IMG/VR virus record: IMGVR_UViG_3300020577_006271
Location: 98,684-162,683 of that record
Source of the DNA: a virus
Lineage: Duplodnaviria; Caudoviricetes
Strand: one strand, 5' to 3'
DNA: 64,000 nucleotides
The notes under the pieces are model-generated. The model saw nothing but the letters and a program-made list of their open reading frames with translations. It did not search any database and was not told the origin of the DNA. The position numbers and the translations under genes are program-made. This document shows, one piece after another, positions 20,347-41,287 of the stretch; positions within the stretch are counted from its first letter, which is position 1; each line of letters starts with the position of its first letter.

Positions 20347-21551
20347 TGAAAAATTTTACATTTATCCCATCCATTTCGGCTGGATACTTATATAACGGAA
20401 TTGTTACTGATAAAACATTCTTGAATGGGATGCCTTACGATTATTATAATTACGAAGGAAAATTTAATTACCCATATTTTCTTATAACTGCAGGAAATTT
20501 TTACAAAAAAGATGTTTACGAAAAATCGAAATTCTTCAAGAATGAGAACGTTGAAATATTTGGCGACTCGGGTGGATATCAAATAGCAACTGGGACATTA
20601 AAATGGAATAAGGATATACGGCATACAATAATGACTTGGCTGGAAAGAAATTCAACCGTTGCCGCAAATCTTGATATACCACCAAGATCAAAATTATTTT
20701 CAACGACGGACGCAAGAGAAATATCGTATGACAATTTCAAGTATTTTCATGAAAATCAGTCGGGTAAAACTAAATTTTTGAATGTGTTACAAGGTAAAGA
20801 TTTAATTTCATATTCATCCTGGTATAATATGGTTAAAGAATTTACTGACTTTGAAGGATGGTGCATTGGCAACGTATCTACTATATCAAACATTATTACG
20901 TCAATATATGTGTTACTGAAGAACAAAGAGCATCTAAGATCTAAGGTAATACATTTTCTTGGTGCATCTAGTCCGGATTCATTTGTAATTATGTCACATT
21001 TTCAAAATGCGTTAAACAATGTTGGATTAGACGTACAAATATTTTCCGATTCGTCAAGTCCTAACTCAGCAAGATTTGGATATTACTATACTGACATTGA
21101 TTATAAGACTTTAGCCTGGAGGAATTTTCATATTCCATACATACGAGAAGAAAATATCGAAAATTTAGACAAATATAAATCAGAAATTTATAAATCAGAT
21201 TCAAATTCGATATTGCCATTGTACACAGATTTCGACAAAGAAATATTTATAAATTTATTCAACCACCAAGATTTACTTGATTATAATTCTAGATTTTGTA
21301 GTGCCTTAATATTAAGAAATATTCATGTCTATAAAGCACAAGTGGAAATTATCAATGAATTTGTCAAAGCTCCCGAATATTATAGAAAACATATTTTTCC
21401 AGAGAGTATTGCTAAATTAGGGTCAATGATAAACGAAATGGTAGAATCAACATCATCACAAATGATTGACTCAATATATAATAAATATTCTCCAATACTC
21501 AACAAATATAAAAGCTCAACCACGGCTGGAACCAATCAACAACTGTTTTAA
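20346..21551 (+). CDS. TGT-fold transglycosylase (DpdA-like, putative DNA 7-deazaguanine insertase)
   Basis: DSGGYQ, LDIPP, VLQG, GWCIG, IHFLG and SDSSS TGT motifs; immediately upstream of DNA polymerase. Confidence 0.75.
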   Translation: MKNFTFIPSISAGYLYNGIVTDKTFLNGMPYDYYNYEGKFNYPYFLITAGNFYKKDVYEKSKFFKNENVEIFGDSGGYQIATGTLKWNKDIRHTIMTWLERNSTVAANLDIPPRSKLFSTTDAREISYDNFKYFHENQSGKTKFLNVLQGKDLISYSSWYNMVKEFTDFEGWCIGNVSTISNIITSIYVLLKNKEHLRSKVIHFLGASSPDSFVIMSHFQNALNNVGLDVQIFSDSSSPNSARFGYYYTDIDYKTLAWRNFHIPYIREENIENLDKYKSEIYKSDSNSILPLYTDFDKEIFINLFNHQDLLDYNSRFCSALILRNIHVYKAQVEIINEFVKAPEYYRKHIFPESIAKLGSMINEMVESTSSQMIDSIYNKYSPILNKYKSSTTAGTNQQLF

Positions 21552-21552
21552 T

Positions 21553-23388
21553 ATGTATAGCAGAATCCATTACGATCGTAATAAAAACCTAATTCATTTA
21601 TGGGATGATGTAAACGGGTATTCGAATTTTGAATATCAGCCATATGCATATATCAGCGATGTTAACGGTGATAAAAAGACAATGTCTGGCATTCCAGTAA
21701 AACGCACCACTCGGTGGAATTCTACCGCTGAAGAGTTAGGTATTATATTTGAGGCAGACGTTCAACCAGAGATGCGTACATTAATTGACTTATATGGAAA
21801 TTCAGATGAAATTTCAAAACGATTAATCCTTTACGCTGACATTGAGGTTAGAAAAAATGAAAAATATTCAACGGTTGCTGAAGCTGCGAATGAAATCAAT
21901 GCAATAACTTATATCACTAATGAAACTGATATTTATACAGTTTTACTCTTGGATGAAAATAGTGCACCGAGAAACTATAGAACAACGGTACAAATTCCAA
22001 AAACAGAAATATTTGTAGAATGCAATATTAAAGTTTTTAATTCCGAAACAACGCTTTTAAAAGCATTTTTAAAGGATTTAAGAGAAATTGATCCTGTAAT
22101 ATTTACTGGCTGGAATACGGATCAATATGACATTCCGTATTTGCACAACCGTATTGAAAAGGTTTTAGGTTATGAATATAAATTATTACTAAGTCCAATA
22201 TCAATAGTTAGAACCAACGAATATGCAGGGAAAACTGAAATTAAAATAGCTGGGTTATATAATTTAGATTATTTAGATTTATACAAGAAATTCACTTATT
22301 CAGAAGAACCATCATATAAATTAGATTCGATTGCTATTAAAGAATTGGGAATTGGTAAGGTTGAATATGAAGGATCGCTGGATGATTTATGGCGGCAAAA
22401 TCCAGATAAATTTATTAGTTATGCAGTGATTGATGTCTGGTTAATAAAACAACTTGACAAAAAATTAGATTTCATCGACATTGCTTGTGGTATTTGCCAT
22501 AAAGGGCATGTACCATACTCGGACATTCAATTTACATCTAAATACCTTGAAGGTGCGTTGTTAACACATTTGCATAGAAATAATTTAGTTGCAATTTCAA
22601 CAGAGAAAACTAAACATCATGATACTGCTGAAGGTGCGTATGTCAAAGAACCAATTCCAGGAATTTATCGTTGGATTTATGATTTAGACTTGACGTCATT
22701 ATACCCTTGGAATATTATAAACTTAAATATTTCCCCAGAAACTAAATTTGGATTTATTGTAGACTGGAATCAGGAGAAGTTTTTAAAGGATATAGACCGT
22801 TCATGGAAATTGCTTAAAAAGGTAGATACATCAACGTATAAATTTTTCAAAGATCTTGATGAAATTAATGAAAATGAATTCAATTTTGCCACAACAATAG
22901 AATTCAAACAATTTATAATTGATAATAATTTATCGATTTCATCATCTGGTATTTTATATTCATTGGATACCCCTGGATTGATTCCAACTGTTTTGAAAAT
23001 TTGGTTTGCGGAACGGACAGAATATTCAAATCTTATGAAGGAATATGGACTATCTGGAGATTCAGAAACGGAACGATATTATGATAAAAAACAATTAGTT
23101 ACAAAAATTCTGTTAAATTCGCTATATGGTGTATTGTTGTTACCAACATTTCGTTTCTATGATCGTCAAAATGGGGAAAGCGTGACAACTGTTGGACAGT
23201 CTGTGATAAAATGGGCAACCGCAATAGCAGATAAGTTTTATCACAAAGAATTAGCAGAATTTAATTGTATTTATCGACTTGAAATGGAAAACGGTACGGT
23301 TAAAAGTTTACATGGATTCGATTTGATAAATACAAATTCTGGGAAAAAATATGTTTTCCAATTAACTCCTGATGATGAATTAATATAA
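21553..23388 (+). CDS. Family B DNA polymerase, N-terminal half (exonuclease plus motifs A and B)
   Basis: DIE, GWN...YD, DLDLTSLYP and KILLNSLYG; lacks motif C; likely start MYSRIH at 21553. Confidence 0.9.
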   Translation: MYSRIHYDRNKNLIHLWDDVNGYSNFEYQPYAYISDVNGDKKTMSGIPVKRTTRWNSTAEELGIIFEADVQPEMRTLIDLYGNSDEISKRLILYADIEVRKNEKYSTVAEAANEINAITYITNETDIYTVLLLDENSAPRNYRTTVQIPKTEIFVECNIKVFNSETTLLKAFLKDLREIDPVIFTGWNTDQYDIPYLHNRIEKVLGYEYKLLLSPISIVRTNEYAGKTEIKIAGLYNLDYLDLYKKFTYSEEPSYKLDSIAIKELGIGKVEYEGSLDDLWRQNPDKFISYAVIDVWLIKQLDKKLDFIDIACGICHKGHVPYSDIQFTSKYLEGALLTHLHRNNLVAISTEKTKHHDTAEGAYVKEPIPGIYRWIYDLDLTSLYPWNIINLNISPETKFGFIVDWNQEKFLKDIDRSWKLLKKVDTSTYKFFKDLDEINENEFNFATTIEFKQFIIDNNLSISSSGILYSLDTPGLIPTVLKIWFAERTEYSNLMKEYGLSGDSETERYYDKKQLVTKILLNSLYGVLLLPTFRFYDRQNGESVTTVGQSVIKWATAIADKFYHKELAEFNCIYRLEMENGTVKSLHGFDLINTNSGKKYVFQLTPDDELI

Positions 23389-23390
23389 AT

Positions 23391-23690
23391 ATGAAAGTTG
23401 AAAAAACCAAAGAAAGCGTAATATTAGAAATTCTTTTTGACGCTGGAGTCAAATTTGACAAAAATGATTTTGATCTATATAAAACCATATTCGATAATGG
23501 TTATTATTTTAAAACTTTATTAATGGAACAAACGTTATCAAAATTATTAAGATTCAAGGAAGAAATTCTAGAACAAAGAAAAATGTTAACCGAACCAAGA
23601 CCAGGAATATACTTAAAATATAATAACAGATTAGGTTGGAAAATTGTAATATATTGGTATAATAATAACATAGAAACAATTAATACATGA
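23391..23690 (+). CDS. Hypothetical protein between the polymerase halves
   Basis: 99 aa ORF tightly coupled to both halves; no recognisable nuclease motif. Confidence 0.55.
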   Translation: MKVEKTKESVILEILFDAGVKFDKNDFDLYKTIFDNGYYFKTLLMEQTLSKLLRFKEEILEQRKMLTEPRPGIYLKYNNRLGWKIVIYWYNNNIETINT

Positions 23691-24634
23691 AAATAAAAAG
23701 TATCAAGTCGTTGACAATCAATACGGAACATATTATATCTTTTTCTATATATACTGATACTGACAGTATATTCTATCCATTGGAACCATTAATGATAGCT
23801 AGATATGGGAAACAAAATTTCACTGACGAAGAGTTTATAGAAAAAGGGTTACCCTTAATTAATGAAATCCAAAATTATATTAATAAATCATATGATGTAT
23901 ATGCTAAACGATATCATAATGTATCTACCCATGGGTGGAATTTGAAACAAGAATTGTTGGCAAGAAGAGGATTCTGGTCGGGAAAGGTAGAAAAACCAAA
24001 AAAAGGGCAACTTCCAAATTCTATATCTACTGTTACTGGTGTTAAAAAACGCTATGCGCAGTGGATTGTAAATAAAAAGGGGGTTCCTAAAAATTACATG
24101 GATGTCAAGGGCCTTGAATCAGTTAGATCCAATTATCCTAAAATTTTTAGATCTAAACTTGCCCAGATATTTGAAAAATTATTACATGACTGCACTGAAG
24201 ACGAAATGAATAATTTTCTTAGGTCATTTAAAAAACAAATTAAAGAAATTGATATGTGGGATATTATGATCCCAACTTCAGTTAATTCAGTCGAAGATTA
24301 TTCAACCGGGGTTTTTGGTTCATATGGAAAAAAGACTCCAGCTCATGTTAAGGCAGCATTAAATTATAATTCTGTCATTGATTTACTAAAATTGGAAGTA
24401 CCTAAATTAACCGATGGTGATAAAATATTATGGTGTTATTTAACAAATAATCCATATTATTTTGATGCTATAGCAATTTCAAGAGAATCAAATCCTCCAG
24501 AATTAATAAATTTTGTCGAAAAACACATTGATCGAAATGCTGTCTTTGAAAATTTATTCTTAAATAAAGTTCAGGGTTATTATTCGTCAATTGGATGGGG
24601 AAAAATTCAAATTAATTCAAACTTTTTCTTCTAA
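23687..24634 (+). CDS. Family B DNA polymerase, C-terminal half (motif C plus thumb)
   Basis: YTDTDS, KKRYA, KGLESVRS and PAHVKAA. Confidence 0.9.
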   Translation: MKIKSIKSLTINTEHIISFSIYTDTDSIFYPLEPLMIARYGKQNFTDEEFIEKGLPLINEIQNYINKSYDVYAKRYHNVSTHGWNLKQELLARRGFWSGKVEKPKKGQLPNSISTVTGVKKRYAQWIVNKKGVPKNYMDVKGLESVRSNYPKIFRSKLAQIFEKLLHDCTEDEMNNFLRSFKKQIKEIDMWDIMIPTSVNSVEDYSTGVFGSYGKKTPAHVKAALNYNSVIDLLKLEVPKLTDGDKILWCYLTNNPYYFDAIAISRESNPPELINFVEKHIDRNAVFENLFLNKVQGYYSSIGWGKIQINSNFFF

Positions 24635-30861: not shown

Positions 30862-31256
30862 GAATAATTTGTTCGGAACCATTCATCAAATTTTCAGATA
30901 TACGAAAAATTATGCGCCGAATTTACGAAGACATCGGACCAACCAATTGTATCATACTAAGTGCTGCCCACAGTCTGGGAGATAACCATGTGAAGATGGA
31001 AGCAATTAAACATGAATTAACCTATCTAGAATACAATCCAGCATATACTGGTAAAAACATGTTTAGCGCAGAAACTCATTCATACTATGCTAATAAAAAT
31101 TGGCATTATAGCCAAATTATGCATCGATATCAACGCCTATTTCAAGCAGCAGACAAATTATTTATCTTTAGAAAAATTAATGATAGTGACAAAACCATCG
31201 ACTCGGCTATCAAATTCATACCAAAAAAATTAAAACATTCCATAATTTACACATGA
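30852..31256 (+). CDS. SLOG/YspA-like protein
   Basis: MRIGII start and SLOG-like spacing; degenerate. Confidence 0.4.
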   Translation: MRIGIICSEPFIKFSDIRKIMRRIYEDIGPTNCIILSAAHSLGDNHVKMEAIKHELTYLEYNPAYTGKNMFSAETHSYYANKNWHYSQIMHRYQRLFQAADKLFIFRKINDSDKTIDSAIKFIPKKLKHSIIYT

Positions 31257-32452
31257 AAATATTATTGCTTTCTGATCATATTAATAAACCAACTGGAGTT
31301 GGAAAGGTATCAAGAAATTTGATAAAATATAGCTCAGCTGAAACTGAATGGGTGCAGTTGGGTGGTGCTTGGACACACGTTGGAGCTCCAGAAGATATTA
31401 ATATTGACGGAGTTAAGTCTGTCAAGGTTTACCCTGCGTATGATTATGGTTCCGAAGCAATGCTTTTAGGAATTTTAGAAATTGAAAAGCCGGATGTTAT
31501 TTTACATTTTACTGATCCAAGATTTTGGATTTGGCTTTATCGGATGGAATTTAGAATTAGAAAAATCATGAAAATTCCGTTAGCATATTATTCAATTTGG
31601 GATAATTACCCAATTCCTAAATTCAATGCGCCATATTATAATAGTTGTGACATGTTGATTGCAATTAATGACATTAGTTATAACATACATCGAAATCTGG
31701 CCCCAAAATCAATGCACAGAAAGGCGCCACATGGTGTTGATACTGATGTTTTCTTCCCAATTAATTGGGCTGAATTGTCAGATTTACGTTCTGAGTTTAG
31801 ATTAGCCCATTCATGTGATCGAGTATTATTTTGGAATAACATCAACATGAAAAGAAAGAATCCATTACAATTAATGGAAGCCTTCGCCGAGTATTATCGA
31901 ACACACGATAACCGATGTTGCTTATTAATGCACACCGATCCATTGGATTCCGCCGGCGCAAATTTAATTTCTGCGAAACATCAATTGTATGATGATTGTA
32001 ATATTGTATTTTCACCTAACAAGGTCTCCGACCAATACATGAACGTACTTTATAATATTTCGGATGGTGTGATATCAATATCATCTAATGAAGGATTTGG
32101 ATTGAGTATTTCTGAAGCTGCTGCAGTTGGGCTTCCTGCAATTGTATTAGATACTGGTGGACTAAAGGACCAAGGACGGCGATATAATTCAATTACAATA
32201 GATCCTAAAGTTCAAATTCTTTCTGGTAGTCAATTGGTACCCTACATATATCAGGATTTCGCATCGACGGCTAGCATTGTTAGTAAATTGAAAATCTGGA
32301 AGATTTTAATTAATAATAAAAAAGCATTAAATCGTATTCCACATCCAAGTTTACATAAGGCTCAGAAAATGGCTTATCAGGTTGAAACTTCATTAATTCA
32401 TTGTGTGGATGCTTTTAGAAATTTACCAAAATCAACAATTACAATTATATGA
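31253..32452 (+). CDS. GT-B (family 4-like) glycosyltransferase
   Basis: PTGVG, PHGVD, NxxRK and NEGFGL...EA. Confidence 0.9.
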   Translation: MKILLLSDHINKPTGVGKVSRNLIKYSSAETEWVQLGGAWTHVGAPEDINIDGVKSVKVYPAYDYGSEAMLLGILEIEKPDVILHFTDPRFWIWLYRMEFRIRKIMKIPLAYYSIWDNYPIPKFNAPYYNSCDMLIAINDISYNIHRNLAPKSMHRKAPHGVDTDVFFPINWAELSDLRSEFRLAHSCDRVLFWNNINMKRKNPLQLMEAFAEYYRTHDNRCCLLMHTDPLDSAGANLISAKHQLYDDCNIVFSPNKVSDQYMNVLYNISDGVISISSNEGFGLSISEAAAVGLPAIVLDTGGLKDQGRRYNSITIDPKVQILSGSQLVPYIYQDFASTASIVSKLKIWKILINNKKALNRIPHPSLHKAQKMAYQVETSLIHCVDAFRNLPKSTITII

Positions 32453-33498
32453 AAATATTAGTAATAGGACCAGCATATTCTATATCCGGATATGGTGAGA
32501 GAACCAGACAACTGATTTATGATTTACAAAAATTATCATATTCAGTAGATATTCAAAGTTCGTCTTGGGGAAATACCATTAATGACGAATTCACATTTGA
32601 TTGTGGGGCATATAATCCAAATCAAACCTATGATGTGGTTTTTTATGTTGGAATGTTAGATGAAGTTCCATTACCACCAATCAATACCAAAAAATATATT
32701 GCTGTTACTGCTGGTATAGAAACTGATACAATGTATGCATTTTCAAATACGGCTGATTTAATCTTAGTATCATCCGAACATTCGAAGTCATTGATACCTG
32801 AATCTAAGGTTTTGCCAGAATCTATTAATGGATTTGCGAAACGTGATAGTAAAACTATCGAACAAAAACGAATATTAATTTCTGGAGCCTGGATTGGCGG
32901 ACAAACTATAGGCGAAGACAGAAAGAACATCCCATATTCTGTATATAAATTGTTGGAAATTATTGGTCAAAGTGCTGACCCAAGTTGTTATGAAATTGTG
33001 TTACATACATCAATGGGTACTTATTCAGAACTTGAACGGTATGAAATAACCAATTTCATAACACACTTAAAGGATAAGACTCAAACTCCAGTTAGAATAG
33101 AATTTCATCATGGCATATTAACACACACCGAATTAACCAATTTATATCATTCGTGCCAATACATGTTTACGTTGACACACGGGGAAGGTTTCGGACGACA
33201 TATAGCTGAATTTATGGCAACTGGTGGACGAATTATAGCCCCTAATTATTCAGGTTACCTAGATTTTGCCAACACTTCGGATAATATTATGTTACCAGTT
33301 AATCTGGTAAATATTCCAACTTCAATGATTAATAAATGGCTATTAAAGGAATCTAAATGGGCAGAAGTAGAAGATACCGCCCTTAAGGAATTAAATTTAG
33401 ATAATCTAGATTACAGTATATCCGAAACTAATATACTAAGTATTGAAGAAAACAATAAAAAATCGTTATCCATACTTTCTGAAATACTAATTATTTAA
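32449..33498 (+). CDS. GT-B glycosyltransferase
   Basis: SGYG, AGIET, DRKN and HGEGFGR..AEF. Confidence 0.85.
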   Translation: MKILVIGPAYSISGYGERTRQLIYDLQKLSYSVDIQSSSWGNTINDEFTFDCGAYNPNQTYDVVFYVGMLDEVPLPPINTKKYIAVTAGIETDTMYAFSNTADLILVSSEHSKSLIPESKVLPESINGFAKRDSKTIEQKRILISGAWIGGQTIGEDRKNIPYSVYKLLEIIGQSADPSCYEIVLHTSMGTYSELERYEITNFITHLKDKTQTPVRIEFHHGILTHTELTNLYHSCQYMFTLTHGEGFGRHIAEFMATGGRIIAPNYSGYLDFANTSDNIMLPVNLVNIPTSMINKWLLKESKWAEVEDTALKELNLDNLDYSISETNILSIEENNKKSLSILSEILII

Positions 33499-33516: not shown

Positions 33517-34011
33517 ATGAAATTTTTCAACGCTGCATTTCTAAAAAAAATATTATCTCAATATGGAGATTTTAAAATCTTTGTTGATAAAGAATATATT
33601 TCGTTGATAGATAATTTTGATATTAATGGAATACAAGGTACCGGAGTTAAAGCTGATGGGAGAATGGTTAGATTTAATTACATTAATATTGAACATATCA
33701 AAATTGGAGAAGACATGTTGACAAAAGATATGTTAAATCCAGAAGAAAAACCCGAAGATGAAAAAACTAAAAAAGGATCATCGAAACCTGCTGACGAGCC
33801 AGGAGATGCAAAGGAACCTGAGCCTAAAAAAGAAGAAGGGTATGTACCCGGAGCTCGGGTGACTGTATTATCTGAGTGGTTAGGCTTTCGAAAGGGAATT
33901 GTAGAAAGTTCTAATGATCAATTTATTTATGTTCGCATCTTTAATCCAAAAACCGGAAGCTTCAATTTATTTGAAGTAAAAAATTCTGAAATAATTGAGG
34001 AGACATTGTGA
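33517..34011 (+). CDS. Hypothetical protein
   Basis: 164 aa; late-promoter-like ACTAATTAT upstream. Confidence 0.55.
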   Translation: MKFFNAAFLKKILSQYGDFKIFVDKEYISLIDNFDINGIQGTGVKADGRMVRFNYINIEHIKIGEDMLTKDMLNPEEKPEDEKTKKGSSKPADEPGDAKEPEPKKEEGYVPGARVTVLSEWLGFRKGIVESSNDQFIYVRIFNPKTGSFNLFEVKNSEIIEETL

Positions 34012-34427
34012 GTTCAATTGAATTTAAAGTAAGGAATAATATATTAACCGTTATATATTCAACACAGATTGGAAAAACTGTATTACATTCAGAAATTATT
34101 GATGGTCATAAATCATTTGAAACATTAATTAAGCAAGCATTAAACCAAATAAACATTGAACACATTAAAAATTGACAATGCTTGCAACAAATGTAAAGAT
34201 AGTTCGTATGAATTGAAAACTGACCTGGTGGATGTTCCCATAGTGTTGAATATATTGTTGAATTCTGGTATTATATTTGCCGAACAAGCTGAACAAATAA
34301 AAATGTTGAATTCGTTTAACAATAAAAAGACTATACTTAAATTTGGTAAAGAGTCTATTAATGAAATTACCCAAATTTTAATTAAACATCAGTTTTCAAA
34401 ATTTATAATAGTTAAAACAATTCTAAA

Positions 34428-34727
34428 ATGATATATTTAATAATATATGCAGTTATTGCATATGCAATAACTGTGATTGTTACCGAATCATATATTTTTT
34501 CTTGGCTTAGAAGTTTATTAAGTAAGATAAAAATATTGGGGATATTTATTACATGCCAGGTCTGTATTTCGGTCTGGGTTGGTGCATTTTTGTCACATTT
34601 CTGGTTCAGTCCATTGCAATATATTCAAGCTCCAATGTTCCAATTTCCATTATTAATGGATTCACTGTTAACTACCGGCTTGGTACTATTTTTGTATTAT
34701 ATTGAAACATTTTTAACTTCAAAATAA
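34428..34727 (+). CDS. Membrane protein (DUF1360-like)
   Basis: TM helices; C..C.SVW motif. Confidence 0.55.
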   Translation: MIYLIIYAVIAYAITVIVTESYIFSWLRSLLSKIKILGIFITCQVCISVWVGAFLSHFWFSPLQYIQAPMFQFPLLMDSLLTTGLVLFLYYIETFLTSK

Positions 34728-34733
34728 TAAATT

Positions 34734-35288
34734 ATGCCATTATGGTTTAATAAGAAATTGAATTTAACCGAAGATGAAATTAGAACGGTAATGGAAATTG
34801 GCACCAGCCAGGAGAACATGGCACAATTATTAGGAGTTTGTCATGAAACATTCGCAAGATATACTAAAAATATGGTGGATCCAGAAACCGGATTAACTCT
34901 TCAAAAATTGTCAACAATTATAGGAAAACGAAATAAAAAGAAGTTGAAAATGGAAACTAAAAGGCAAAAAACCGAGAATTTCAAGAAAATATCGATATCT
35001 GCTATTTTGGCTGGTAAACATCCAACATATAACCGCACTAAACTTAAAGCCAGATTAATATCCGAAGGGATATTTGAAGAAAAATGTCAAATTTGTGGAT
35101 TTGAAGAACGCCGAATACTTGATTTTCAGGTTCCATTGATATTGTTATTCAAAGATGGAAATAAACAAAACCATCTATTTGAAAATTTAGAATTTTGTTG
35201 TTATAACTGTTTCTTTTTAAATTATAACGATTTAAAAATAAAAACTGATAATTATACGTTGAACCGCTTGTATAAGGTTAATATATGA
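34734..35288 (+). CDS. HNH-like zinc-binding protein with N-terminal HTH
   Basis: CQICG...D...N...NL.F.CYNC. Confidence 0.6.
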   Translation: MPLWFNKKLNLTEDEIRTVMEIGTSQENMAQLLGVCHETFARYTKNMVDPETGLTLQKLSTIIGKRNKKKLKMETKRQKTENFKKISISAILAGKHPTYNRTKLKARLISEGIFEEKCQICGFEERRILDFQVPLILLFKDGNKQNHLFENLEFCCYNCFFLNYNDLKIKTDNYTLNRLYKVNI

Positions 35289-35762
35289 ATTGGATGGAAT
35301 GGATAGGTTCACTTACATTACCAATTACCGAAGACGAATCTAGAACTCTAAATTTTTTCAAAGAACATATTGAAGTTATGCAAAACTTAGAACCAACTAT
35401 AAATTATAAATATTATTTAAATGAAATCAATAAATTATTGTATGAACCCATCAATTGAAGAATTTTTATCACATCATACCGAATTATTTACCGAATATGG
35501 TAAACTTATTTTTTCTGCACATTTACTTGAACAAAATTTATTCAAAATACGAGCAGATATAGCTTTGCTCGAAGAAAAATTAATTAAACAATATGAAACA
35601 AATGACGACGATTTGGGTTCCGGAGGCGACACCCATGAATAGCAAACCATTAATGTATAGTGTAACCAAGCCAGAAGATATTGGATGGAAACCAATCATT
35701 GTTGATGTAGATACATTGGCTGAATGGAGAAACGAACCTGTTAAAGATAAATTATTATTAGG

Positions 35763-36242
35763 ATGAATTGGGAAAAATATAAATCATTAGCAGCAAGAAC
35801 TATGCTCGATCGTGGAAAAGAACATAATTTTCTACACATGAACGCTGGTATAGGCACTGAACTTTTTGAACTTATGGATATATTTAAACGTAATTATGCA
35901 TACGATAAAGATGTTGATCTAATACATGTGTCTGAAGAAATCGGTGATACGTTTTGGTATGAAGCAAACCGCGAAAGATTATTTCCGGAATTAACATTTG
36001 ATGTTAAAGAATATCAATTCAATTCTATAGAAGATATTATGTACAGTATTATTGATTTTAATATAATGGAAGGTTCGGCAACTCCATTATTAATGGCCAT
36101 GATAGATTATTTTGAATTAGATTTAGATCTTATTTTAACTAAGAATATAAAAAAATTAAAGGGTCGATTTCCTGATAAATTTAATACAGTCGACGCATTA
36201 AACAGAAATTTAGATAACGAACGCAAAATATTAGAATCATAA
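35763..36242 (+). CDS. MazG-like nucleotide pyrophosphohydrolase
   Basis: E..EL.D..K...EEIGD.FWY and N..KL..RFP. Confidence 0.8.
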   Translation: MNWEKYKSLAARTMLDRGKEHNFLHMNAGIGTELFELMDIFKRNYAYDKDVDLIHVSEEIGDTFWYEANRERLFPELTFDVKEYQFNSIEDIMYSIIDFNIMEGSATPLLMAMIDYFELDLDLILTKNIKKLKGRFPDKFNTVDALNRNLDNERKILES

Positions 36243-36829
36243 TGGAATTTACCAACTCATATTCGAATTTAGTACAAACCATATTATTCTCCGGTTATGA
36301 TTACCCAGATCCAAACCGGTCAGGAATATTTAGAAAGGAAGTATTCCCAGCGGTTATAGTACATGACATGCAAGGATCCTTTCCATTGTTGGCATCCAAA
36401 AAAATATTCACTAGGGGAGTATTTTATGAATTGAAATGGATGTTATTAGGTAGAACCGATTTAAATTTCTTAAGAGATCATGGAATAAAAAATATCTGGG
36501 ACAAGGATGCCTATAACCACGCGTTAAGAAATAAATTCCATGGTACTATGGAAGAATTTCTGTCGGATGTTGATAATGGAAATGTATTTTCTTTGGGGCC
36601 GATTTACGGAAAACAGATGCGGAATTGGAACGGTACCGACCAATTGTTAACCGTAGTAAATAAATTGTTAGATCCAAAACAACGATATTCAAGTGAGCTT
36701 ATTATAAGTTCCTGGAACGTTTCAGATTTAAATATTATTGATTACCGATCTGACGATGTATTATATCAAGCATATTTAAATGAAATTAAATGGAATGTAC
36801 CTGAAGACAACGATATCGTGATTAAATAA
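36242..36829 (+). CDS. thyA: Thymidylate synthase, N-terminal half
   Basis: FPLL..KK, ELKWML.G, IW, LGPIYGKQ.R and SSWN. Confidence 0.9.
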   Translation: MEFTNSYSNLVQTILFSGYDYPDPNRSGIFRKEVFPAVIVHDMQGSFPLLASKKIFTRGVFYELKWMLLGRTDLNFLRDHGIKNIWDKDAYNHALRNKFHGTMEEFLSDVDNGNVFSLGPIYGKQMRNWNGTDQLLTVVNKLLDPKQRYSSELIISSWNVSDLNIIDYRSDDVLYQAYLNEIKWNVPEDNDIVIK

Positions 36830-36836
36830 CATTATA

Positions 36837-36883
36837 TTTCTCCATTACTTACTATATATTAAATATAATAAACAATGGAGAAA
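36837..36883 (+). promoter_or_regulatory. Late promoter enclosed in a translation-repressing hairpin
   Basis: TTTCTCCATT (36837-46) / AATGGAGAAA (36874-83) flank ACTATATATTAAAT just upstream of the HNH start. Confidence 0.6.
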
Positions 36884-36887
36884 ATTA

Positions 36888-37592
36888 ATGAATTATGAAA
36901 AAATCTACAATCAAATTATTGAACGAGCAAAGACGCGAGCATTGCAAGGTTATGGCGAAAATCATCATATTATACCAAAATGTTTAAATGGCACTAATCA
37001 TCCGGAAAATATAGCAAGATTAACCGCCAGGGAACATTTTTTAGCACATTGGCTTCTACATGAAATGTATCCAAATAATTCCGATTTACGATATGCGTTT
37101 TGGTGTATGTTTAGGAATTCAATCGGCCAGGAACGATATGTGCCATCTTCAAGAGTGTATGAATACGCTAAGATTAAGATGATTGAAGTTTGGCATAAAA
37201 TAAAGAAAACTCCGGCTGAAATAGAATCACTTAAAAAAAGATTTACTGGCACAAAATGGTATCACAATTTAGATGGTTTTAATTTTAGGGTGTTTGATGA
37301 TGATACGCGTATATTAACTGAAGGCTGGATTCCTGGTAGATTTGATGGCAAAACTATATCGAAACATGCTAATAATATAAAAGAACTTCAATATGCTGAA
37401 GGGAAACGCAGACCTGAAACGTCTAATAAAAAATGTTCAATTGATGGTAAACTGTTTGATTCGGCAAGTGAAGCCGCAAGGGAACTCGGTATAAACCAAT
37501 ATACTTTAAGATGGATTTTACAAGGCAGATTTTCGCCAAAACAAAAAGAAAAATACAAAAATTGGTATTACATAATTAATAAAAATGTTTAA
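36888..37592 (+). CDS. Free-standing HNH homing endonuclease (MobE-like)
   Basis: MNYEKIY...ENHHIIP.C..G....N...LTAREHFLAHWLL; C-terminal NUMOD1-like HTH. Confidence 0.9.
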   Translation: MNYEKIYNQIIERAKTRALQGYGENHHIIPKCLNGTNHPENIARLTAREHFLAHWLLHEMYPNNSDLRYAFWCMFRNSIGQERYVPSSRVYEYAKIKMIEVWHKIKKTPAEIESLKKRFTGTKWYHNLDGFNFRVFDDDTRILTEGWIPGRFDGKTISKHANNIKELQYAEGKRRPETSNKKCSIDGKLFDSASEAARELGINQYTLRWILQGRFSPKQKEKYKNWYYIINKNV

Positions 37593-38142
37593 CATGAATG
37601 AAATATTATCTAAAGAAGAATTCTTAGAAAAGTTAAAAACCGACAATAAATTTAATGCTAAATATGGAAGAAAGCATAAATATAAGGTAGCTCTTCATCC
37701 TTGTCATCATGAGATACAATTTAATTGCCGCCCAGGACAAAACGGAGAACATTATTTAGATCTACAATTTTCAATGCGCTCATCTGACGTTATATTGGGT
37801 CTTCCTTGGAATTTTGCATTTTATGGAATGATGCTTGAAATAATTGCTAATATTACAAATCTAATACCAGGTAAATTAACTTATTTTGGTAAGAAGGTGC
37901 ACTTGTATGACAACCAGTTTGATGCTGCCAAAGAACTCATTAACCGGACCAGCCATCGTCGCGATTTAATGTGTGAACCAAAAGCTGAAGTATATATAGA
38001 TGCAGAGCTTAAATGTGAATCATATGATTCTGCGAGTTTAACACAATTAATTAATAGTTTAAATTTAGATACTATCAAATTTTCAAATTATAAAAATTTA
38101 GGCGACCTAGAAAACCAGCCGACAATGCTAGCATATAGTTAA
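37585..38142 (+). CDS. thyA: Thymidylate synthase, C-terminal catalytic half
   Basis: ALHPCH, RSSD..LGLPWN and HLYDNQ. Confidence 0.9.
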   Translation: MFNMNEILSKEEFLEKLKTDNKFNAKYGRKHKYKVALHPCHHEIQFNCRPGQNGEHYLDLQFSMRSSDVILGLPWNFAFYGMMLEIIANITNLIPGKLTYFGKKVHLYDNQFDAAKELINRTSHRRDLMCEPKAEVYIDAELKCESYDSASLTQLINSLNLDTIKFSNYKNLGDLENQPTMLAYS

Positions 38143-38198: not shown

Positions 38199-38221
38199 TG
38201 ATGTAATTAAAAAATAATATA

Positions 38222-38512
38222 ATGACAATATCAGAATTAACTCCAGGTTTTGTATTTTATACAGCAACGATTACTGGTTTTAATTGGTATGAGTATGTAG
38301 CTCCAATGCCAGTTAAACCGTTGACATCCCAAAATAAGTATTTTATCTTAATTGATAAACAAACTGAACGACCAATTCGTATGTATCACGTTGAATTACA
38401 ACGTTTATTGGATCAAAATTTGTTTACATTGAAAGGTTGCTTAAAAAGACAGCTTGAGTTAGCAAAAGATTGGGTTAGTTTTTTAGAGTCTGAAATTAAT
38501 AAACATGAGTAA
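38222..38512 (+). CDS. Hypothetical protein
   Basis: 96 aa ORF after the promoter. Confidence 0.55.
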   Translation: MTISELTPGFVFYTATITGFNWYEYVAPMPVKPLTSQNKYFILIDKQTERPIRMYHVELQRLLDQNLFTLKGCLKRQLELAKDWVSFLESEINKHE

Positions 38513-39590: not shown

Positions 39591-39932
39591 ATGAAAAAAT
39601 TTTTAATTTTTTCTCTATTTTCTCTTTTTTCTCTTCTTTTTGTTGGGTGTGAAGCTGTCGAACCCCTTAGTTATGGAGTTAAATACGATCCTTGTTCTTC
39701 AACCTTGTCTCGCGATAATCTAACTGTTGTGTATGGCAAATTTAATATGTGTGGAGCTTGCTGTGAAGTATCGGACTTTCCATCAACACCGCAGGTTTTA
39801 AAGATTTTGTCAGCCAACTCCGAATATTTTAGGGTGTCCGCTGGCATTGCACCTAACGTATGGTGCTATGAGCAGGTTTGCCTTGCAGAAATGTTCAAGT
39901 TACCGAAAATGTTTTGGCAAACCTGCTCATAG
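39591..39932 (+). pseudogene. N-terminal part of an SPFH/band-7 lipoprotein interrupted by an 800-bp insertion
   Basis: Lipobox FVGC; the frame rejoins ORF 40604-41287 if 39825-40624 (bounded by a TCCGAA direct repeat) is removed. Confidence 0.7.
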
Positions 39933-39944
39933 CACGTGTTATAG
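39851..39944 (+). repeat. attC-like site 1
   Basis: ACCTAAC...GTTATAG ends; perfect 20-bp inverted repeat 39863-82 / 39916-35. Confidence 0.75.
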
Positions 39945-39994
39945 CCAGTACGGTTTATTTAATTTAGAAATATTTATATATAAACATAAACAAA

Positions 39995-40423
39995 ATGAGC
40001 AAAGAAATACGAGATATGATTGATAAGGTTAAATCATTCAATCAATTTGTAAATGAAAATATAAAACGAGATGTTTATATTTATCATGGAACAGGTAAAG
40101 GACAAGCATTAAATATTCAAAGAGATGGTTATATGAAACCTAATAGAACTGGTGAAGAACAACCATCAATTAGTTTTACAAACGATTTAGATTATGCTAA
40201 ATACTATGCTAAATCAAAAGGTGGAATTAGTAAAATGTGTATTTTGAGAACAAAATTAACTGATGATTATCAACTATCACCACGAATAGTAAATAATAAA
40301 GGTGATGAATACATTACGTTCAAGAATGTACCTTCATCAGATTTGGAAGTAATGACTATGGATGGTGGTTGGCAACCATTAGATAGTTGGAATGTAATCT
40401 TTGATGAACCACAAAATGCTTAA
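39995..40423 (+). CDS. ADP-ribosyltransferase-fold (H-S-E / Tpt1-like) protein, cassette-borne
   Basis: YIYHGT...I..DG..P, SISFT.D...A..YA and EYI. Confidence 0.65.
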   Translation: MSKEIRDMIDKVKSFNQFVNENIKRDVYIYHGTGKGQALNIQRDGYMKPNRTGEEQPSISFTNDLDYAKYYAKSKGGISKMCILRTKLTDDYQLSPRIVNNKGDEYITFKNVPSSDLEVMTMDGGWQPLDSWNVIFDEPQNA

Positions 40424-40446
40424 TCGAAGCACTTCCGTAGTATTGG

Positions 40447-40543
40447 CTATAACGGACGGGGCTATGAGCAGGTTTGCCTTGCAGAAATGTTCAAGTTACC
40501 GAAAATGTTTTGGCAAACCTGCTCATAGCCCCGTCCGTTATAC
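40447..40543 (+). repeat. attC-like site 2
   Basis: CTATAAC...GTTATAC ends; perfect 31-bp inverted repeat; 69-bp core identical to site 1. Confidence 0.75.
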
Positions 40544-40603
40544 GCTGGCACGGTAAATTCAGTAGAAACTTAAATTGAAACACAAAACAAAATTTTTATT
40601 AAA

Positions 40604-41287
40604 ATGAGCGAGGCAGAATCCGAAACATCCGAAGCCAATAGTCATTTTACTGTACCAATTGGTACATCTTCTGTAGAATTTGATTATAATATTGAATTTC
40701 AGATAAAAAGTGAAGAAGATGCGAAAAAATGTTTTATGTCGTGTAAGGCCGGGAAGGATTTTAATTCGTATGTAAGAAATAACATGAAAAACAATCTAAG
40801 AGACATCTTTAAAAATGTAATGCGTAATTTTAAATCTCCAGAAGCTTTAATTGATTCAACTGGAAAATTTGAAACCTTATGCTTTATTGAAATTGAAAAA
40901 CGTCTTGCTGAAGATGGGATCACTGCGAGCCGAGCAAACCTTATTAACAACTTTCGATGGCCAGCAAACGTAGCAAAAACATTAGAAGAAATTATAACAA
41001 TAAAAGCCAAAACCATGATGGCCGAATCACAAGCCAGGGCAGCCGAGCTAGAATCAAAGGCTAGAATGATACAATCTAAAGCAAACAGTGAAGCGGATAT
41101 CATAGAAGCAGAAGCAAAAAGAAAGATTGCTGAAATTAATGCAGATATCAAGGCAACCGAAATCAAAAAAATCAATTTGTCATTGACGCCACAGTATCTT
41201 AAGATGTTAGAGATTGAAAATTATACTTATAAGACTGAATTAGTGACACCACAAGGTGTCTATCGGATCAGTCAAACAGAAGATTAA
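40604..41287 (+). CDS. SPFH/band-7 domain protein, C-terminal part with a cassette-derived start
   Basis: Prohibitin-like core, AEA-rich coiled coil and SLTPQYL; first residues MSEAE come from the insertion. Confidence 0.7.
   Translation: MSEAESETSEANSHFTVPIGTSSVEFDYNIEFQIKSEEDAKKCFMSCKAGKDFNSYVRNNMKNNLRDIFKNVMRNFKSPEALIDSTGKFETLCFIEIEKRLAEDGITASRANLINNFRWPANVAKTLEEIITIKAKTMMAESQARAAELESKARMIQSKANSEADIIEAEAKRKIAEINADIKATEIKKINLSLTPQYLKMLEIENYTYKTELVTPQGVYRISQTED

Follow-up and report, generated by a model that had tools for sequence, protein, structure and literature searches.

The closest described counterpart of the locus reported here is the nrdA-a/mobE/nrdA-b arrangement of phage Aeh1, known as 'genes-in-pieces' (Crona et al. 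2011, PMC3045599; Friedrich et al. 2007, as represented in papers that cite it). According to the sections of PMC3045599 on the NrdA tails, the heterodimer can form in their absence, but enzyme activity and the dimer of heterodimers strictly depend on them. The same sections note that such tails are predicted elsewhere but hard to find, and a paper of 2023 still writes "in at least one instance" for an endonuclease-split gene that keeps its function (PMC10448857). Here we describe a thymidylate synthase (TS) gene that is divided into two open reading frames (ORFs) by a MobE-like HNH endonuclease gene, in a 64,000-nucleotide stretch of DNA (hereafter the window) comprising bases 98684-162683 of the 162,683-bp IMG/VR virus record IMGVR_UViG_3300020577_006271 (Duplodnaviria; Caudoviricetes; 88% complete according to CheckV). 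The window has a GC content of about 31% and carries T4-like replication and baseplate genes. We consider it likely that a mobile endonuclease cassette with portable peptide tails splits this TS gene, and that the two resulting chains reassemble without splicing of RNA or protein.

The window locus appears to share every sequence-level feature of the Aeh1 system that we examined. In both, a nucleotide-metabolism enzyme is interrupted beside its active-site residues by a free-standing MobE-family HNH gene, this gene and the downstream half overlap (PMC3045599, in its account of the locus), an RNA hairpin of the kind described for I-TevI and Aeh1 mobE is predicted to sequester the ribosome-binding site (RBS) of the endonuclease gene (PMC2988022, in its part on these genes), and the new termini carry tails that are absent from contiguous homologues and tend to opposite charge, with no intron or intein. 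A preliminary description of the window, made from its letters alone, had named the intron-free split by MobE in Aeh1 nrdA as precedent, and this precedent is real (PMC3045599 and PMC2988022, in the relevant sections). The two systems also differ. The TS tails are a conserved portable pair, found with an HNH gene, a GIY-YIG gene or no endonuclease gene, at several positions and in TS proteins 32-41% identical, rather than being unique to one phage, and the origin of the C-tail can be traced to a small-domain segment of TS, whereas the discussion in PMC3045599 leaves the origin of the Aeh1 tails open. The host gene is TS here and nrdA there, and the charge polarity is reversed, the acidic tail being on the N-half and the basic tail on the C-half of TS. 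Tail function was shown for Aeh1 and is here a proposal made from sequence.

In phage T4, the td gene is interrupted downstream of its catalytic Cys. The td intron with I-TevI is similar to the window locus in that a phage TS gene is broken in a critical conserved region by the gene of a homing endonuclease, which is preceded by an RBS hairpin (PMC2988022 and PMC8351571, in their passages on td), but no ribozyme is detectable in the window and two polypeptides take the place of RNA splicing. The 'fractured genes' (Dassa et al. 2009, PMC2677866) also have an endonuclease gene between the halves of an essential gene, and short oppositely charged end peptides are proposed, in the part of that paper concerned with them, to join the halves; in the window, no Hint or intein domain was found, the junction nucleophiles are not conserved, and the products should stay two chains. 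T4 gene 39/60 (mobA) and gene 43A/43B of Aeromonas phage 25 are further essential enzymes in two pieces around a free-standing endonuclease gene (PMC2988022, in its overview), with tail-like extensions on the pieces (PMC3045599, in its discussion); they are other enzymes, and a shared portable tail family is not described for them in those sections. Our literature search, judged partly by titles and the beginnings of abstracts, found no description of a published split TS of this kind.

Aeh1 NrdA is the only endonuclease-split enzyme with tested tails on record. The TS locus adds a second enzyme together with a family of natural cases, which includes an intact allele, alleles with two nuclease types, alleles that have lost the endonuclease and a re-fused allele. 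This range makes testable the portability of the tails as an assembly module, their origin, and the way in which a selfish element that is neither intron nor intein can settle where an essential gene is most conserved.

Anatomy of the split TS gene

All features of the split gene lie on the + strand and are numbered by window position (Table 1). The N-half and the C-half jointly span positions 2-255 of the 266 positions of the TS family PF00303, and no other PF00303 gene was found in the 88% complete record. Amino acids 1-163 of the N-half are 87% identical to amino acids 1-164 of an intact relative, and the body of the C-half is 95% identical to the same protein at the amino-acid level. The N-half stop codon and the HNH ORF are spaced by exactly 58 nt (36830-36887), and the ATG of the C-half at 37585 sits 8 nt inside the HNH ORF, with a second ATG at 37594. 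The preliminary description had proposed a TS gene split beside its active site by a free-standing HNH gene; all of the features that it gave were found in the sequence, and the contiguous 316-aa ORF of a relative bears it out.

Table 1 Features of the split TS locus, in window positions
Feature	Position	Strand	Details
TS N-half ORF	36242-36829	+	195 aa; PF00303 positions 2-154, E 1.1e-24
TS-homologous part of N-half	36242..36730	+	aa 1-163, last residues ..SSWNVSDL
Upstream co-conversion tract (foreign TS sequence)	36340..36730	+	85.7, 71.1, 78.9, 70.7% DNA identity to the near-isogenic relative over 36340-36699
N-tail	36731..36829	+	32 aa NIIDYRSDDVLYQAYLNEIKWNVPEDNDIVIK and stop codon; acidic
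Predicted RNA hairpin	36830..36890	+	pairs GGAG and AUG of the HNH gene
Free-standing MobE-like HNH homing endonuclease gene (predicted)	36888..37592	+	234 aa
TS C-half ORF	37585-38142	+	185 aa; PF00303 positions 140-255, E 1.1e-24
C-tail	37585..37674	+	30 aa MFNMNEILSKEEFLEKLKTDNKFNAKYGRK; basic; new start codon overlaps HNH stop
TS-homologous part of C-half	37675..38142	+	HKYKVALHPCH.. to stop; catalytic Cys40
Downstream co-conversion tract, short	37675..37760	+	74.4% DNA identity in 37671-37760, then 93-100% over the next six bins

An intact allele and the recent arrival of the cassette

A near-isogenic viral contig (L003/L004; TS at L004:4001-4951) has an uninterrupted ORF of 316 aa for the same TS, with the sequence ..NSWNVSDLHKMALPPCHHEIQF.., and the cassette-free site in this relative reads ..AGCTGGAATGTCTCGGACTTGCACAAAATGGCT.., so that the insert in the window runs from about 36731 to 37674. 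Upstream, the DNA of the two is 97.8-100% identical in 26/26 bins of 90 nt from 34000 to 36339, and identity falls only in the tracts that adjoin the insert (Table 1). This drop, limited to the insert flanks, is as we read it a mark of recent homing, and foreign TS sequence that extends unequally to the two sides of a presence/absence polymorphism is the trace expected of co-conversion in an event that an endonuclease would have driven.

A 16,065-nt DNA contig from a second sequencing run (X2) carries the N-half, the HNH gene and the C-half at about 94% identity over 36257-37844, between flanks that are unlike those of the window. Its C-half (P0014) has a tail identical to that of the window, the whole protein being 77% identical. 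Since this contig carries the cassette between unlike flanks, the cassette is present in more than one genomic background.

Two runs labelled as RNA-Seq (X10 and X17, probably DNA) gave a single joint across the insert, where 36730 is joined to 37708 with 27 letters between that read HKMALPPCH. The contig that holds it is about 9% diverged from the window, and the joint belongs to a relative with an intact allele and does not come from splicing.

The tails form a conserved pair that moves between TS lineages

Among the 80 viral loci examined, which were the best 80 of 510 relatives, 8 are split with the same tails. The N-tail has the motif ..DYRSDDxLYQxYL.. and the C-tail the motif ..LTKEEFLEKLKTDxxFNxKYGRK.., and beyond the window the pair flanks an HNH gene, a GIY-YIG gene or no endonuclease gene in these 8 loci and in some 30 protein clusters. 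Six of these loci (L034, L035, L036, L038, L040 and L059) are split before the catalytic Cys, and two (L044 and L100) about 65 residues earlier, between WRNWNGK and GIDQI. Both halves are on the contig in seven loci, of which two have a MobE-like HNH gene, two a GIY-YIG gene (by Pfam) and three no endonuclease gene; in the latter (L035, L036 and L059) the tails are retained all the same. The N-tail motif is present in 7/7 further loci that have an N-half ORF. In addition, L037 (3500-4492) has a single TS ORF of 330 aa in which the C-tail is kept in frame just before the catalytic Cys (..NAWNVSNIPKADDFMTNEPLTKEAFLEKLKNNKEFNLKYGKRLKPGRNPMALPPCH..), and which looks like a re-fused, formerly split gene.

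Both extensions are absent from the six closest intact relatives of the window TS (P0001-P0005 and P0007; 316-321 aa), whereas the N-tail recurs in P0006, a protein of 191 aa that is 65% identical. The start M..L(T/S)KEEFLEKLKTDxxFNxKYGRK.. is common to C-halves whose TS lineages have no more than 34-40% identity to that of the window, and the tails stand at up to four positions in TS genes that are only 32-41% identical. The tails outdo the TS bodies in conservation in 15/15 pairs for the N-tail and in 14/15 pairs for the C-tail. By this distribution, the tails are part of the cassette and not of the window TS lineage.

A search with a profile of the C-tail yielded 59 cluster representatives at E<=1e-3 among 1.84 billion, whose classes were read from their sequences. 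In 30/59 representatives, a TS C-part begins with the C-tail, and four positions are used: 17 before ..LPPCH, 10 before ..IDQI, 2 (short fragments) before ..ELSCQLYQR and 1 before GDLGPVYG, this last site resting on one truncated protein, P0088, whose relatives in viral contigs are intact TS only. In 7 of the other matches the segment is a natural internal part of TS, and in 8 the protein stops directly behind such a segment; the remainder are 9 small non-TS proteins, 4 undetermined fragments and 1 false hit.

The tails are constrained at the amino-acid level. For three independent pairs, with the codons of the search pattern removed, synonymous differences per site (pS) were 0.85 and non-synonymous differences per site (pN) 0.16, giving a ratio of 0.19 (Fisher p 5e-17); the N-tail alone, which had no part in locus finding, gave a pN/pS of 0.23 (p 1e-5), and 5/5 invariant N-tail residues use more than one codon. 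On these substitution patterns, the tails are under purifying selection as peptides, with synonymous sites nearly saturated. In the window, the net charge is -4 for the N-tail (31 aa scored) and +4 for the C-tail (36 aa scored).

The N-tail peptide pattern gave 0 hits in viral contigs, and its two hits in metagenome contigs were rejected as chance matches in unrelated genes. No tail was present among the best 30 of 2,834 matching records from cultured phages, all of which start at query residue 33. Among the matches listed, the closest cultured TS, from the Flavobacterium phage immuto group, is intact and 53% identical, and the best identity of the window TS halves to the phage collection was 39% or less.

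Origin of the tails

The C-tail profile aligns to a small-domain segment of intact phage TS (LTKEEFIKQIKTDEEFAKKWGELGPIYGKQ) with a probability of 92.4% and E 5e-7 in hhalign. In L044, which is split at the upstream site, the tail of the C-half and the sequence that follows it (IDQISELI..) are collinear with an uncut TS piece (51% over 138 aa, E 2e-44), apart from one 13-residue gap where KIYGYQWRNWDGR would be, and the N-half of L044 retains its own copy of the segment (46% over 24 aa, E 9e-5). Because the C-half is collinear from the tail onward while the N-half keeps the segment, the C-tail probably began as a duplicated piece of TS at the upstream site and would then have moved with the cassette to the site used in the window.

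The window TS has a different sequence at the small-domain position (..TMEEFLSDVDNGNVFSLGPIYG..), so its C-tail appears to have been imported rather than duplicated from the gene in which it now lies. The preliminary description had taken the C-extension for a duplicated subdomain. It was not copied from the TS of the window genome itself: the tail came with the cassette, and the duplication would have occurred in another TS lineage, at a different split site. Its comparison of the extension with the small domain of Lactobacillus casei-type TS was correct as to homology with the TS small domain; the likeness to the L. casei enzyme in particular was not recovered, as the C-tail profile gave 12 chance hits against the PDB (best E 0.049) and no TS, L. 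casei included. A BLASTP search of one C-half against an intact TS did not report the short tail match, which the profile comparison found. For the N-tail, read-through in HMMER alignments had raised the idea of a duplicate of the strand after the catalytic Cys; hhalign gave this a probability of 0.9% and it was discarded.

The small non-TS proteins among the profile matches (P0091, P0101, P0102, P0107-P0109, P0113, P0114 and P0116; 84-211 aa) combine a segment like the TS small domain (..KEEFINKCKTDSEFSEKWG) with ..LKIEERELSLEER...IPTKLITITYNN.., which resembles an insert that this clade of phage TS has after the catalytic strand. Peripheral elements of TS may thus have given rise to a protein that stands alone.

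Functional potential of the two-piece enzyme

The window C-half contains HPCH, MRSSD, GLPWN and HLY, motifs that are invariant in 28/28 alignment rows; the catalytic Cys-His of PCH, RSxD and the Asn of GLP(F/W)N are key TS residues. All split C-halves (17/17) keep PCH, RSxD, GxP(F/W/Y)N and H(L/I/V)Y, and among the split N-halves ELxW is present in 7/7 and (I/V/T)YGxx(W/M/Y)R in 6/7. The intact relative P0001 scores 151.9 bits on TIGR03284, the NCBI equivalog model for TS (cut-off 108.35), its best PDB hit is the T4 TS 1TIS (9.4e-40), and its top 60 PDB hits are all TS.

An AlphaFold2 model of the C-half has a mean predicted local distance difference test (pLDDT) of 84.7 and places two helices in the tail, at residues 10-19 and 21-27 (pLDDT 88 and 76), on a low-confidence linker. 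Residues 33-183 of the model superpose on the C-terminal halves of solved TS structures (Z 11.6, root-mean-square deviation 2.2 A over 133 residues of 2aaz). In this structure search, only residues 33-183 were aligned and the tail matched nothing. The model of the N-half/C-half complex scored 0.91 and the best of three controls 0.00, against a mark that is reached by 116/157 solved complexes and 2/215 mismatched pairs, a pass which may only reflect likeness to solved TS structures. Runs agree in at least 86% of contacts, and the pLDDT of the partners is at least 85. A model of the re-fused TS of L037 was too weak to place its tail (mean pLDDT 74.6; 48-72 in the tail region). Taken with the retained motifs, these models suggest that the two-piece enzyme may be active.

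Proposed mechanism and alternatives

The course of events that we propose is as follows. A cassette of five parts, namely the N-tail segment with its stop codon, the RBS-sequestering hairpin, the MobE-like HNH gene, a new start codon and the C-tail segment, would have entered the TS gene a little ahead of the catalytic Cys, so that the ..SDL codons now lie on one side of it and those for HK(M)ALPPCH on the other. It most likely came by endonuclease-initiated recombination (homing) from a co-infecting phage, and the same event would have converted about 390 nt of upstream and at most 90 nt of downstream TS sequence. Two polypeptides would then be made, the N-half with an acidic tail and the C-half preceded by a basic helix-turn-helix tail, and these would reassemble non-covalently into the TS fold, with neither RNA nor protein being spliced. 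The tails would travel with the cassette between TS lineages and insertion sites while selection keeps their amino-acid sequence, and they would be needed for the assembly or activity of the split TS, making the insertion harmless, in parallel with the tails of Aeh1 NrdA-a and NrdA-b.

TS functions only as a dimer, and each active site includes residues contributed by the other subunit. It is plausible, by analogy with NrdA, that the tails help the assembly or activity of the split enzyme, and the occurrence of the same tail pair at several cut sites argues for a self-contained module over site-specific packing. We advance tentatively, as a possibility that we do not yet favour, that the pair is an evolved heterodimerisation module, a clasp carried by endonuclease cassettes as their own antidote, which began as a duplicated piece of the enzyme at the first break. 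The preliminary description had likewise proposed a re-association clasp, for which the complex model gives no confident tail contact. If this is true, one cassette could cut an essential enzyme at several positions (up to four in TS) and in distant alleles without killing. A small natural pair of peptides that restores an enzyme cut at any of several places would be of interest to protein engineers.

Several observations pull against the mechanism that we propose. The phage is uncultivated and the locus is known from DNA alone. The cassette is recent in the window lineage, and the long-term survival of the split is shown by relatives and not by the window genome itself. In the complex model, confident contacts end at residue 165 of the N-half and begin at residue 32 of the C-half, so that neither tail is placed, which amounts to uncertainty about tail contacts rather than to their absence. 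Charge complementarity is a tendency only, the N-tail being negative in 6/8 cases and the C-tail positive in 7/9. An origin of the N-tail in TS was not detected with hhalign. The tail motifs were found with regular expressions, which brings some ascertainment bias into the selection test. Finally, ahead of SAWN, where DSRRLMV is found in other TS, RYSS(E/S)LII stands in both split and intact members of the window TS lineage (36650-36710; P0001-P0008), the sequence there being RYSSELIISSWN in the window, RYSSSLIINSWN in intact relatives and PDSRRLMVNAWN in other split lineages. The Arg pair at this place in TS comes from the partner subunit and binds the phosphate of deoxyuridine monophosphate, and the product of the window TS may be deoxythymidine monophosphate (dTMP) or a modified nucleotide.

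Some of these observations would suit tails that are passengers, neutral relics that supply only a stop and a start codon while the halves associate through the ordinary TS fold. The complex model does build that fold from the bodies with no confident contact of the tails, charges are not complementary throughout, and any sequence between the homologous flanks would be co-inherited with the endonuclease gene. Neutral relics would, however, hardly keep their residues while synonymous sites approach saturation (pN/pS 0.19, p 5e-17), nor outlast the endonuclease in L035, L036 and L059 and remain in the re-fused gene of L037, nor recur at up to four split positions, and in the one tested precedent the tails are essential (PMC3045599, in its sections on tail function). 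We regard passenger tails as unlikely.

It is less credible still that the split killed the gene, leaving two ORFs as a recent pseudogene in a phage that relies on dTMP from its host. The recent arrival of the cassette, a locus seen as DNA alone and the missing Arg pair would agree with a dead gene. Against it, the conserved TS motifs checked are kept in the split C-halves (17/17) and N-halves (7/7), the window-type cassette is found in TS bodies that have diverged to 63-97% identity (P0013-P0016), and the genome has no other TS gene. Moreover, there would be no reason for selection on the tails if the proteins were of no use, and the Arg pair is missing from intact relatives too, which makes its loss unrelated to the split. 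We consider a pseudogene very improbable.

Intron and intein alternatives

The preliminary description had excluded an intron on the ground that no ribozyme core fits into the 58 nt between the N-half and the HNH gene. Compared with the intact allele, however, the insert holds some 157 nt on the 5' side and some 82 nt on the 3' side that are not part of the endonuclease gene, which approximates the core size of T4 phage introns, so the argument was unsound, while its conclusion stands on other evidence. An Rfam scan of 36400-38000 found no intron family at E<=10, and seven related loci gave 0 hits at the gathering level. As an Rfam model can miss cores that are broken by a large ORF, the peptide-level evidence weighs most: both flanks of the HNH gene evolve as proteins, the C-tail is homologous to a TS protein segment and lies in frame within the single ORF of L037, and L059 keeps both extensions with 20 nt and no gene between its TS halves. 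A group I intron that carries the HNH ORF, with extensions that are intron sequence which happens to be open, has in its favour the length of the non-ORF insert and the standing of TS genes as classic intron hosts, as exemplified by the T4 td intron (PMC2988022 and PMC8351571, in their passages on td). Given the above, it is most improbable.

No Hint or intein domain was found in either TS half with Pfam. Intein splicing requires junction nucleophiles (Cys, Ser or Thr), and across the loci the N-tail starts with N or P, while the residue after the C-tail is no conserved Cys, Ser or Thr. That the tails, only 30-32 aa long and in the case of the C-tail derived from TS, should be the halves of a very small split intein by which TS is rejoined through protein trans-splicing is scarcely conceivable, even with the free-standing endonuclease genes known between the split-intein halves of 'fractured genes' (PMC2677866, in its part on these).

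The endonuclease gene and its regulation

The HNH ORF matches the homing endonuclease family phrog_655 (1.8e-44), and its product, which has an HH..N..N..H motif, is 46% identical in its N-terminal HNH nuclease domain to T6 MobE (103 aa, E 3e-26). The 5' end of the gene has 67-70% DNA identity to the 5' ends of T-even mobE genes. At the C-terminal end, residues 178-207 resemble the I-TevI DNA-binding domain PF20987 but score below threshold (24.4 bits; cut-off 27). The window HNH protein is 60% identical to the HNH protein of L044, which sits at the second TS site, and has its C-terminal DNA-binding region in common with the GIY-YIG protein of L040 (E 2e-7). The co-conversion tracts and the presence/absence polymorphism are indirect signs that it may cleave the cassette-free allele at a specific site. 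In L034 and L040, a GIY-YIG nuclease occupies the same TS site with the same tails, a natural swap of the nuclease domain on one targeting module.

The hairpin before the HNH gene has a predicted free energy of -17.6 kcal/mol (z -6.26), and 0/200 shuffled sequences fold as well. Comparable hairpins precede the endonuclease genes of L034, L040, L044 and L100, and the loop of the L034 hairpin contains TATAAATA, which we take to be the T4 late-promoter consensus. With a hairpin over the RBS and AUG and an overlap with the downstream half, the regulation of the HNH gene would resemble that of Aeh1 mobE. Rfam hits of a miRNA-like kind at the locus were set aside, since they reflect the hairpin at 36830-36890 only.

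In P0087 (56 aa), the C-tail is joined straight to the last HNH residues (..FSIRWILQGRGRSQKHKEKYKNWFYIN), and this protein is probably a deletion product of the cassette. In L100 (4747-5427), a second HNH ORF after the TS gene closes with a repeat of roughly the final 13 residues of TS (..ENYQSHPKIVAPLSN, compared with ..LNYQSHPKINFPLSN at the end of TS proper), as though the 3' end of the TS gene had been duplicated when the endonuclease gene was inserted.

Neighbouring genes

A MazG-like pyrophosphatase gene (35763-36242) ends where the TS start codon begins, and two glycosyltransferase-like genes lie upstream of TS at 31253-33498. The layout of glycosyltransferase, MazG-like and TS genes recalls phage gene sets for DNA base modification. 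A second free-standing HNH gene (34734-35288; phrog_14736, 8e-14) lies 1 kb upstream, and the cassette-free relative encodes an identical protein.

The family-B DNA polymerase (PolB) at 21466-24634 is likewise divided: two ORFs of 640 and 315 aa, each a match to phrog_262, flank an ORF of 99 aa (23391-23690). The TS tails are absent from the split ends of PolB. Because each TS tail occurs once only in the genome, the PolB split is seen to use other ends than the TS split, and the preliminary description was right to treat the two as independent.

The near-isogenic relative differs from the window at two further places. A 96-aa ORF of the window (38222-38512; difference region 38214-38492) is missing from it, and at the difference region 39797-40612 the relative has a 298-aa lipoprotein-like ORF, compared with a 113-aa ORF (39591-39932) in the window.

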